The notes under the pieces: model-generated | Databases searched by the model: none | Seen by the model: the letters and a program-made list of their open reading frames with translations, nothing else | What the model was told of the DNA's origin: nothing | Program-made: the position numbers and the translations under genes | Shown: positions 9,897 to 43,988 of the stretch, piece by piece | How the letters are laid out: each line of letters starts with the position of its first letter | Numbering within the stretch: position 1 is the stretch's first letter | Assembly: GCF_002854065.1 (NCBI RefSeq) | Contig: NZ_CP024147.1 | Direction: 5' to 3' (one strand) | DNA length: 64,000 bases | Origin: Escherichia coli | GTDB lineage: Bacteria > Pseudomonadota > Gammaproteobacteria > Enterobacterales > Enterobacteriaceae

Positions 9897-10880
9897 CTAC
9901 AGTAAATCTTCAGTCTCACGAATTTCCTGACTGACATCTCTGGTTCCGGATGACTGAACTTTACGATACAGGTCGAGAGCCTGTCGGAGATCGACAGGTC
10001 TTCCTTCTCCGTAGTGATACATAATGGCCAGGTTATACCAGGCAGTGGCGTCATTGCATTCAGCGGCTTTCGTAAACCATTCAAAGGCAGCCTGATAATC
10101 TTTCTCAACGCCTTGTCCGTGTTTATACATATAACCGATGTTGACGTAAGCGCCGACGCTCCCCTGAGCGGCAGCCTTCAGATACCAGTACATCGCTTGC
10201 TTATAGTCCTGGTCCACCCCTTCGCCAGCGTTATAATCCCATGCAATTTGAAACTGAGCATGCCGATTACCCTGCTGTGCGCTTTTCAAATACCAGAATG
10301 CGGCGAGTGTCTCGTTTTGAGCAACGCCTTTTCCGTCTTCATAAAGATCGGCCAGATTGTTTTGCGCGTCACTATGGCCTTGTAATGCAGCTTGTTTGTA
10401 CCAGAAAAATGCCAGCGTATAGTCTTGTGCGACTCCGTTGCCATTTCTGTACATCCACCCAAGATTATTTTGCGCATAAGACATTCCGCTCTCCGCGGCT
10501 ATCTGATACCAGGCAACCGCTTCTTTATAGTTGGGGTCTTCTCCACGATCCAGTATCCAGCCAAGGGCGTTGGAAGCGAAAGTATGGCCTTGTAGGGCAG
10601 CTTTTTTCAGCCAGAAGATGGCTTGCTCATTATCTTTATGACGGCTTTTATCCTCGGTATACTTTTGCCCTAAGGAATACTGTGCTTCACAATGACCTTG
10701 CTCAGCGGCCAGCTTCAGCCAGTAAAAGGCCTTTTCGTCGTCCGGAGAGTCAATTGCGCTATCGCGATTATAATAAAACCCAACAATATATTGAGCCTCA
10801 CTATCGCCTTGTTCAGCACGTTCGATAATCTCATCTATTGACAAATTATCGCAGCAACTTGACGTAAAAATCATTATCAT
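9897..10880 (-). CDS. ybeQ: Sel1/TPR-like repeat protein
   Basis: 327-aa ORF made of repeated Sel1-type units (recurring A..W..KAA.QG...AQ..LG..Y motifs). Confidence 0.85.
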   Translation of the reverse strand: MIMIFTSSCCDNLSIDEIIERAEQGDSEAQYIVGFYYNRDSAIDSPDDEKAFYWLKLAAEQGHCEAQYSLGQKYTEDKSRHKDNEQAIFWLKKAALQGHTFASNALGWILDRGEDPNYKEAVAWYQIAAESGMSYAQNNLGWMYRNGNGVAQDYTLAFFWYKQAALQGHSDAQNNLADLYEDGKGVAQNETLAAFWYLKSAQQGNRHAQFQIAWDYNAGEGVDQDYKQAMYWYLKAAAQGSVGAYVNIGYMYKHGQGVEKDYQAAFEWFTKAAECNDATAWYNLAIMYHYGEGRPVDLRQALDLYRKVQSSGTRDVSQEIRETEDLL

Positions 10881-11037
10881 TTCCTTATGGTTGCAGATAA
10901 AAGATATTATATTTTTATGTGTTCCGTTTTTGCGTAAGTCTTATTTTATGCGTATTATGTTGTGTCGGAAAAGTATAAATAAATGAGCCTCGTAATGTAG
11001 TTTACATTCATTAAATGAATGTTTAAGGATAAATTAT

Positions 11038-11745
11038 ATGGACATAGAGTCGCAAAAAATATTGTTTGCACTTTCCACTCCGATGGAAATACGCAATGAA
11101 TGCTGTTTACCTTCGCATTCATCCCCCAAAATGTATTTAGGTACATGCTTTTTTGACCTTTCTTCCTCCTGGGGAATTGATGACCGTGATGACCTGCTGC
11201 GCACAATTCACCGAATGATCGATAACGGTCATGCCGCGCGGTTGGCAGGGTTTTATCACCGCTGGTTTCGTTATTCTCCATGTGAATGGCGTGACTATCT
11301 TGCTGAATTAAATGAGCAAGGTCAGGCTTATGCGCAATTTGTCGCCAGCACAGCCGAATGCTGTGGTGAGGGAGGAATTAAAGCATGGGATTATGTCCGG
11401 ATGGGTTTTTTAAGTCGAATGGGCGTACTTAATAACTGGTTGAGTGAAGAAGAAAGTCTATGGATCCAGTCGCGTATTCATCTACGGGCTCTACGTTATT
11501 ATAGTAACTGGCGGCAATACTTTGCCGGTTATACCTTTGGTCGGCAATATTGGCAGTCTCCCGAAGATGATAATCTGCCTTTATTACGTGAATTCTTAGC
11601 GCGTAAAGAATACGACGATTCCGGCAATGATATGTTTTATCAATTATTTGCCAGTGATGATGCGTATTACCCTACCTTGTCCTGGCAACCATTGGCTTAC
11701 TATTCTGCATGCCCGGAAACGCTTAAGGATATGAGCGACCTATGA
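11038..11745 (+). CDS. ybeR: DUF1266 family protein
   Basis: 235-aa ORF, paralogous to the ybeU product in this window (shared [20 protein letters not shown] core); stop overlaps djlB start. Confidence 0.85.
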
Positions 11746-13178: not shown

Positions 13179-13733
13179 TTAATGTGCGGGAAGCCCGGCA
13201 AGTAATCTTTCCGCATTTTTGTAATGTTGTTTGGCGGCCAGTTTTAACCATTTTTGAGATTCATAATGGTTAACATTAATACCTGAGCCATTTCTGTAGA
13301 TCAAACCTAAAGTATATTGAGCATGAGCATACCCTTGTTCAGCTGCTTCCTTATACCAGAGAATTGCTTTACGGGTGTCGGGTTTGACCCCCAGACCTTT
13401 GAGGTAGATCCACCCCAGTTTACTTTGCGCGCGTGGATTTTCCTGTTCCGCTGATTGCTCATACCAGTATCTCGCCTGTGTATAATCCAGTGGTTTACCG
13501 TCGCTACCATGAAGATAAAATTCTCCAAGGCGATATTGCGACGTTGAGTGACCATGAATCGCGGAAAGCTCCGTGGCTGCCGTGGTGAATGGAAGACTGC
13601 CCGGTGAGCTTAAATAATCAAAGGCATAATTCACCATGGCTTTATCACGCAACGTCGTTTTCTTGGGTTGGCTAATACAGGTAATTGCTGCAACTATAAA
13701 AATTGCGAATATATACATTAATTTTTTATTCAT
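13179..13733 (-). CDS. ybeT: Sel1-repeat protein with signal peptide
   Basis: 184-aa ORF; N-terminal hydrophobic signal-like segment then Sel1-type repeats. Confidence 0.82.
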
Positions 13734-13834
13734 GTGTGAATGCTTCGATTTTCTTTTTATTTTGAAAGCGTCAAGTTTATACTCATCAATAATAAAAAAG
13801 TAGTCAGTTAATGCACTTAAGGGATTATTAACAA

Positions 13835-29520: not shown

Positions 29521-29553
29521 AAAAGCAAAAAGCTCGCCGAAGCGAGCTTTTTT
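29521..29553. terminator. Bidirectional intrinsic terminator (end of tRNA operon on minus strand; also faces ubiF)
   Basis: Hairpin agctcgc-cgaa-gcgagct flanked by A-run and T-run, immediately 3' of glnX on the minus strand. Confidence 0.7.
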
Positions 29554-41006: not shown

Positions 41007-41034
41007 AAACGCCGCGGTCTGCGGCGTTTTTTCT
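41007..41034 (+). terminator. Intrinsic terminator after glnS
   Basis: Hairpin aaacgccgc-ggtc-tgcggcg followed by ttttttctgctttt. Confidence 0.65.
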
Positions 41035-43210: not shown

Positions 43211-43240
43211 AAAAAAGCCAACCTACAGGTTGGCTTTTCT
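43211..43240. terminator. Bidirectional terminator between chiQ and fur
   Basis: A-run, agccaacc-taca-ggttggct hairpin, T-run; serves fur on the minus strand. Confidence 0.7.
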
Positions 43241-43783: not shown

Positions 43784-43988
43784 GAATTGCCACGCCTAAA
43801 TGAAAACCACAAGTCCCTGGCAAATATTGTTAATAAAAACGTGGCACAGCTTACATTTACAACGGCAAGGCCACTTGAACACCGGGACATTGTACAGGTA
43901 CAACAGCAAAAGTTACAAATTTGTAGCAATTATTTTGATTGGCATTATCTATTAATACGGCGTAGACATGAGTCTACGCCGCATCACA

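Follow-up and report, generated by a model that had tools for sequence, protein, structure and literature searches.

The stretch of non-K-12 Escherichia coli DNA analysed here as a whole (64 kb; hereafter the window) carries the gene order ybeL, ybeQ (-), ybeR-djlB (+), ybeT (-), ybeU-djlC (+) and hscC (-), in which ybeQ and ybeR diverge from a common spacer (Table 1). Since the annotated start of ybeQ maps to 10874, this spacer measures 163 bp; as the first-pass annotation of this DNA had remarked, the region is very AT-rich, the G+C content of 10881-11037 being 26.8%. In MG1655 the site under study lies at 676676-676696, with the ybeR ATG at 676711. Matches to the 251 bp around it occur in 3839 of 5426 complete E. 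coli genomes, almost always as a single copy, with K-12 93% identical to the window and only two genomes reaching at least 99% identity over those 251 bp; among the approximately 3850 matching places, two lie on plasmid-typed records. The ybeQ-ybeR spacer (10875-11037) is unusually polymorphic compared with the paralogous ybeT-ybeU spacer (13734-13834), which is almost invariant among the E. coli loci compared. Some strains also differ in the flanking genes: ybeQ is a pseudogene with an internal stop in ATCC 11303, DL21 and one O157:H7 strain (L003, L004 and L053), all three with an intact ybeR, and in strain LR-50 (L055, position 204) the ybeR start codon is ATA, not ATG, in a gene still annotated with the K-12 protein. 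One O157:H7 genome (TR01, H31) carries the window allele with 100% identity over 61 nt, against 83.6% in other O157:H7 genomes (H85-H88), a pattern which suggests that recombination may have occurred at the locus.

Table 1. Features of the ybeQ-ybeR region, in window coordinates
Feature	Position	Strand	Remarks
ybeQ	9897..10874	-	Sel1 repeat protein; divergent neighbour; annotated start is the second ATG
Candidate ybeR promoter TTGCGT-17-TATTAT	10930..10958	+	8/12 matches; putative, below the promoter-scan threshold
Inverted repeat AATGTA-gtt-TACATT	10994..11008	+	Overlaps the left arm of the palindrome
Dyad frame 10-1-10	11003..11023	+	21 bp; basis of the allele alignments and pair counts
Perfect palindrome	11004..11022	+	19 bp; as RNA, 8-bp stem with 3-nt loop
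Mini-ORF ATG AAT GTT TAA	11015..11026	+	Three codons, inside the right arm; stop overlaps the Shine-Dalgarno sequence
ybeR Shine-Dalgarno sequence AAGGA	11025..11029	+	ATG follows after 8 nt; no variation among the Escherichia alleles
ybeR	11038..11745	+	DUF1266, 235 aa; 4-nt overlap with djlB

The palindrome reads ACATTCATT-A-AATGAATGT, exactly as previously annotated: one central base separates two 9-bp arms that match perfectly. It goes no further, since a T stands on either side, at 11003 and at 11023. The A of the ybeR ATG comes 16 nt after the last palindrome base, with 15 nt in between, which confirms the distance given earlier, and a gap of 2 nt separates the palindrome from the Shine-Dalgarno sequence. 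It had also been proposed that the palindrome overlaps the ribosome-binding site or the -10 element of ybeR, and neither placement held: the Shine-Dalgarno sequence is located downstream of the palindrome, and no convincing -10 element could be placed on it, a TTNAAT reading being rejected for lack of the key A at position 2. In the 21-bp frame the outermost bases form A-T in the alleles of K-12, B and O157 and G·T in two others; the window has T×T there. Two other features share these bases. The AATGTA-gtt-TACATT repeat is confined to the window allele family and is missing in K-12 and the other alleles. The mini-ORF has an ATG or GTG start in nearly all alleles and is probably incidental; as a cause of conservation it was rejected, its frame and stop being lost in Salmonella-type orthologues.

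In this one spacer, a palindrome of this kind is unlikely by chance. Dinucleotide-preserving shuffles of 10881-11037 (n=20000) yielded perfect arms of at least 9 bp in 191 cases when loops of up to 5 were allowed and in 100 cases with loops of up to 1, and the 64-kb window contains 10 distinct palindromes of the same class (11 hits, one site being found at two loop sizes) versus about 2 expected. A whole genome should nevertheless hold a few such palindromes by chance, and therefore it is conservation that must carry the argument. Other perfect palindromes in the window, with arms of 9-12 bp, lie at 29527-29552, 43213-43238, 41007-41029 and 43958-43981; two of these four consist of an A-run, a G+C stem and a T-run, as in typical bidirectional terminators.

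Alleles of the dyad and their base pairing

Alleles were collected from complete genomes, from a metagenome scan anchored on the downstream flank and from three other Escherichia species; one more came from a locus whose YbeR, in a protein cluster carrying the name E. fergusonii, shares 93% identity with that of the window. This yielded 11 distinct Escherichia alleles (Table 2). The dyad persists in every one of them, even though 10 of its 21 positions are variable. Variable columns are more frequent in the dyad than in the left spacer (32/107) or the translation start region (5/18), and they are unevenly divided between the arms, with 3 variable positions in the right and 6 in the left. The centre is A, T, G or C depending on the strain, the five central bases being essentially free, and the core ATTCA/TGAAT is invariant save for one C>T change that gives a G·U pair. 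As DNA, the alleles of the window, K-12, B, O157 and L057 have perfect arms of 9-10 bp, and the other 6 of 11 are asymmetric. The most variable part of the spacer is the 22 bp directly 5' of the palindrome (10981-11002), in which 16 of 22 columns differ among 12 Escherichia sequences and no conserved repeat was found.

Table 2. Escherichia alleles of the 21-bp dyad frame
Allele	Outer left	Left arm	Centre	Right arm	Outer right
K-12	A	ATATTCATT	T	AATGAATAT	T
B	A	ATATTCATT	G	AATGAATAT	T
O157	A	ATATTCATT	C	AATGAATAT	T
L057	T	ATATTCATT	A	AATGAATAT	T
Window	T	ACATTCATT	A	AATGAATGT	T
PE164	T	ACATTCACT	A	AATGAATGT	T
2013C-4830	G	ATATTTATT	T	AGTGAATAT	T
E1V33	G	ATATTCATT	G	AGTGAATGT	T
MOD1-EC7003	A	GTATTCACT	T	AGTGAATAT	T
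E. whittamii	A	ATATTCATT	T	TGTGAATAT	T
N96	A	ATATTCACC	G	GATGAATAT	T

Base pairing was scored on 12 in-register sequences, namely the 11 Escherichia alleles and one Salmonella enterica orthologue. On the + strand 94.2% of the cells pair, a value reached by 1 of 500 column shuffles, and the covariation score of 0.285 was reached by none of 500, statistics that are modest given that related sequences can beat shuffles without any structure; with 8 alleles only, the shuffle control was not significant (67/500). Sliding the partner columns as a control left 35-46% pairing. Four pairs are changed on both sides in the 12 sequences, and T-A to C-G switches, in one direction or the other, occur at l3/r8, at l9/r2 (with T·G intermediates in other alleles) and at l10/r1. 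All four combinations exist at l9/r2, where PE164 and N96 have a C×A mismatch.

The same helix read on the - strand is 85.8% paired with a covariation score of 0.133, and further pair types number 5 there versus 11 on the + strand. The covariance model built from the 11 alleles (R1) scores the window with 32.9 bits on the + strand and 25.7 bits on the - strand. Single-step transitions from Watson-Crick pairs within Escherichia gave G·U on the + strand at 5 sites and C·A at 1 (l9 T>C), a count for which p is about 0.1. Pairing thus fits the ybeR-sense strand better than the opposite one, by a weak margin, and this strand asymmetry leans towards an RNA element over a DNA operator.

Relatives outside Escherichia and other copies

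Orthologues of YbeR outside Escherichia are 57-67% identical, and their upstream DNA was inspected. Only the right arm, TGAATAT, is clearly kept there; it stands 16-25 nt before the ATG at loci with a ybeQ-like gene divergent upstream (L058, L059, L062 and L068). A clear hairpin, TTCATTT-tct-AAATGAA, is present upstream of the Salmonella salamae orthologue (L062), and L061 reads TATATTCA-tat-TGGGTATG, that is, the E. coli left arm with two A>G changes leading to G·U pairs. The S. enterica-type spacers (L059 and L068) pair only through several G·U, and no convincing hairpin was found in the L058 spacer. These hairpins in L059, L061, L062 and L068 were picked by eye, and equal stems arose in 6-29% of shuffles of the upstream DNA; they were accordingly set aside. 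The covariance model of the Escherichia alleles found no counterpart at the equivalent position outside Escherichia, its best hit there being a Kluyvera locus, 64-89 nt upstream of the ATG (E = 0.1). Because the hairpins picked by eye were non-significant and were not recovered by the model, we treat the element as Escherichia-wide, with relatives elsewhere at most degenerate. As for orthologous spacers, on which the first-pass annotation had let its proposal depend, the dyad is kept in all 11 Escherichia alleles and at best partially in other genera.

The gene neighbourhood also varies among these genera. Salmonella-type loci (L058, L059, L062 and L068) have a second DUF1266-DjlB-like pair directly after the first, without a ybeT-like gene in between, and several other genera have no ybeQ, ybeL being followed directly by a ybeR-like gene. 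A fragment that shares 97% identity with E. coli YbeR is encoded on a 384-bp contig filed under Caballeronia mineralivorans (L012, Burkholderiales), probably through contamination of that assembly.

A scan of the 64-kb window for degenerate matches retrieved no second copy of the motif beyond chance. Places matching the site have a median of 1 and a maximum of 2 per E. coli genome, too few for a repetitive extragenic palindrome or a miniature mobile element. In Rfam no family reached its gathering score, the best matches (15-24 bits versus thresholds of 38-80) belonging to unrelated eukaryotic or other families. Our literature search found no paper with the palindrome sequence or on ybeR regulation, and the products of the genes nearby are confined to Sel1, DUF1266 and DnaJ-type proteins, none with a DNA-binding domain.

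Transcription and predicted folding of the ybeR leader

A promoter and terminator scan of 10780-11140 gave no site at threshold. The TTGCGT-17-TATTAT candidate sits in the best-conserved block of the spacer and, if it were the ybeR promoter, as its sequence and conservation might suggest, the hairpin would lie within a transcript leader of about 70 nt. The sole published ybeR start (Kim et al. 2012, PMC3415461), which we placed on the window by means of the 51-nt upstream sequence given in supplementary file 2 of that study, is at 10672 (+), 366 nt upstream and antisense inside ybeQ, and was defined by 14 reads. The ybeQ start in the same study lies 617 nt upstream inside ybeR, at about 11491 (-), with 6 reads. 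Both starts, if real, would have the palindrome transcribed on both strands, and they imply long, mutually antisense leaders; their read counts are low. That mapping reports these distant starts only and none inside the spacer. The supplements consulted for the Cappable-seq and SMRT-Cappable-seq papers carry no entry for the locus, and a Term-seq supplement (PMC7815308) lists no 3' end within the spacer. The sequence TCCTTA at 10882-10887, the complement of the ybeQ Shine-Dalgarno sequence, is perfectly complementary to TAAGGA at 11024-11029, at the ybeR Shine-Dalgarno sequence, and therefore a long + strand leader would carry an anti-Shine-Dalgarno sequence 136 nt upstream.

Genomic SELEX has shown that the RNA polymerase holoenzyme and H-NS bind the spacer, and predicts for ybeQ the promoter CTGACG-17-AATAAG (Shimada et al.); the dyad centre is located about 80 bp upstream of the ybeQ start predicted in that work. 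Overexpression of SlyA raised the paralogous ybeT 4.1-fold and ybeU-djlC 2.8-fold, and both are listed in the H-NS regulon, which indicates that the locus is under transcriptional control. It is H-NS-bound and poorly expressed.

As an isolated RNA the hairpin is predicted to fold with -5.5 kcal/mol in the window (z = -3.85) and with -3.6 kcal/mol in K-12 (z of about -3.8), and it is included in the RNAalifold consensus structure. Of the pairs in the stem only 1-2 are G-C, and the sequence after it is UUU. When the hairpin is modelled in about 105 nt of leader, its predicted occupancy differs between alleles, from 0.01 to 0.83 (mean 0.42; K-12 0.22, E. whittamii 0.05, 2013C-4830 0.01). Both the Shine-Dalgarno sequence and the ATG are outside the stem, and in the models the mean unpaired probability of the former is 0.81 with the hairpin forced versus 0.57 in the remaining ensemble, its exposure being equal or higher with the forced hairpin in every allele (0.67 versus 0.68 in N96). 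Since forcing the hairpin raises this exposure, the stem would expose the ribosome-binding site, not hide it. Two alternative pairings were discarded. An outer helix, in which part of the AUG can be paired and the Shine-Dalgarno sequence enclosed by an internal loop, exists in the window allele family only; being absent from K-12 and the other alleles, it is not conserved. Pairing of the left arm with the Shine-Dalgarno sequence (UAUUC/GGAUA) was dropped because the window allele weakens it.

Explanations for the palindrome and the surrounding gene island

The palindrome looks like an ordinary, modest regulatory element of a familiar class. Our working interpretation, which we put forward tentatively as one that may well prove wrong, is that it is kept as a small RNA stem-loop in the ybeR-djlB leader beside the ribosome-binding site. 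This reading best fits the compensatory changes and the strand bias, and it is supported by the published + strand start, because a transcript beginning 366 nt upstream would place the palindrome in ybeR-sense RNA. The weakness of the hairpin, the modest statistics, the C×A mismatches, the lack of a counterpart at the equivalent position outside Escherichia, the 14 reads behind the sole start and the poor expression of the H-NS-bound locus count against it. We infer both that the palindrome is transcribed within this leader and that the stem-loop matters. The ybeR-sense transcript would fold an A/U-rich stem-loop of 8-9 bp with a loop of 3-5 nt, ending 2 nt before the Shine-Dalgarno sequence; by tying up the A/U-rich upstream leader, it would leave the Shine-Dalgarno sequence and the start codon single-stranded, and it may also slow decay or provide a docking site. 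The hairpin could thus be regarded as an insulator or stabiliser beside the ribosome-binding site, and not as a sequestering switch. Its closest known analogues are leader stem-loops such as hp2 in the 5' UTR of E. coli ompA, which lies directly 5' of the ribosome-binding site. Leader stem-loops of this type share with ybeR a local 5' UTR hairpin a few nucleotides before a single-stranded Shine-Dalgarno sequence, from which an effect on mRNA stability or ribosome access would be expected and no on/off switch. The stem at ybeR differs from these in being purely A/U-rich and of much lower stability, and nothing implicates a partner such as Hfq or RNase E.

It is doubtful, though by no means far-fetched, that the palindrome has no function at all, having arisen by chance and been inherited by all Escherichia while its arms were matched by quasi-palindrome template switching, with the right arm constrained only as part of the translation start region. 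Template switching at quasi-palindromes is established in E. coli, where changes are copied from one arm to the other, and the ybeR site resembles such quasi-palindromes: its inverted repeat is short and near-perfect, and the two arms have changed in a coordinated way. About 1% of the spacer shuffles yield such a palindrome, so that a genome with thousands of spacers should hold several, and the arms, with the unequal numbers of variable positions given above, are as polymorphic as neutral spacer. It also agrees with a neutral origin that other genera keep the right arm only, that l9/r2 occurs in all four states, that the statistics are modest and that predicted RNA occupancy is low in several alleles. 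Pairing retention nonetheless exceeds both the shuffle and the slide controls, and the 22 bp just upstream have diverged far more than the dyad and hold no conserved repeat. In addition, template switching gives perfect complements, and so leaves unexplained why G·T states, which are imperfect, persist in many ybeR alleles with a bias to one strand.

We consider it unlikely that the site is a DNA operator, in which a dimeric factor would bind ATATTCA and TGAATAT with five uncontacted bases between them and control the promoter of ybeR, of ybeQ or of both. The invariant core with a free 5-bp centre is certainly the classic layout of dyad-symmetric operators (7-5-7), as are the perfect dyad in the commonest alleles and the location in a divergent promoter region, and both the binding of RNA polymerase holoenzyme and H-NS to the spacer in genomic SELEX and the response of ybeT and ybeU-djlC to SlyA, together with their place in the H-NS regulon, point to transcriptional control at the locus. 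On the other hand, more than half of the alleles lose DNA symmetry, mostly by + strand G·U changes that an operator would not favour, and compensatory changes in both half-sites are unexpected for a protein site; the substitutions preserve RNA pairing and not DNA symmetry. Unlike known operators, the site has no known cognate regulator and no mapped promoter overlap, and it stands alone, with a median of one place per genome and no second motif copy in the window; no DNA-binding protein is encoded by its neighbours, and no paper with the sequence was found. We know of no E. coli motif that fits both its sequence and its spacing, those of Fur, ArgR, MetR, NarL/NarP, TorR, CRP, FNR, KdgR, ArcA and PmrA, as well as the RcsAB box, SlyA (TTA-N6-TAA), IHF, Fis and NsrR, having been considered without a fit.

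The two alternatives of the first-pass annotation, an operator or a hairpin hiding the ribosome-binding site, have therefore fared differently in their parts: a hairpin as such is favoured by the strand asymmetry and by the compensatory and G·U changes, and sequestration is contradicted by a Shine-Dalgarno sequence lying outside the stem. A sequestering or terminating RNA, which would either conceal the ribosome-binding site as a thermometer or riboregulator does or act as an intrinsic terminator or attenuator, is largely refuted by this anatomy and is the reading to which we give least credence. Its appeal lies in a weak A/U-rich stem near the start of an operon that encodes a J-domain co-chaperone, features shared with RNA thermometers of the fourU and ROSE types, and in the three U after the stem and the ability of the outer helix of the window allele to enclose the Shine-Dalgarno sequence. 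The ybeR stem nevertheless lacks the pairing of Shine-Dalgarno and AUG that defines such thermometers, both elements being outside the conserved stem, and forcing the hairpin increases exposure; the outer helix is not conserved and no Rfam family matches. As to a terminator, the scan gave no site, no 3' end has been published in the spacer and there is neither a G+C-rich stem nor a run of at least 5 U. It is scarcely less improbable that the stem-loop of our working interpretation is a specific RNA operator, bound by a protein that sets ybeR-djlB translation and that might come from the HscC/DjlB/YbeR/YbeQ module or be a factor active after relief of H-NS silencing. Were this true, an orphan Hsp70 system would gain a dedicated post-transcriptional control element, and the weak A/U stem would be tuned to open or close upon binding or with temperature.

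The genes ybeQ, ybeR-djlB, ybeT, ybeU-djlC and hscC make up an island that is silenced by H-NS and surrounds an orphan Hsp70. This island is poorly understood, and a conserved ybeR leader element would be the first cis-acting control feature proposed for it. A reading of the cluster as a defence system was discarded, PADLOC giving weak repeat-type hits only. Whether the palindrome is an RNA element or neutral, the expected effect is small; if neutral, it would still be a tidy natural case of a palindrome persisting through a hypervariable spacer. An RNA mechanism can be told apart from a DNA mechanism by means of natural alleles such as E1V33 and 2013C-4830, in which the arms are asymmetric as DNA but still pair as RNA through G·U.

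Within the island, the paralogous ybeU has no equivalent of the palindrome, as had been noted before, its upstream region containing only the 6-bp repeat GTTAAT/ATTAAC (13807-13832) with arms 14 nt apart, the intervening loop enclosing the ybeU Shine-Dalgarno sequence AAGGGA. Across the ybeT start codon (- strand), the inverted repeat ATTCA-tgtg-TGAAT at 13728-13741 has arms identical to the core of the ybeR palindrome, a coincidence that may be due to chance; it is conserved in the E. coli loci compared, with one variant, ATTCATATGTGAAT.
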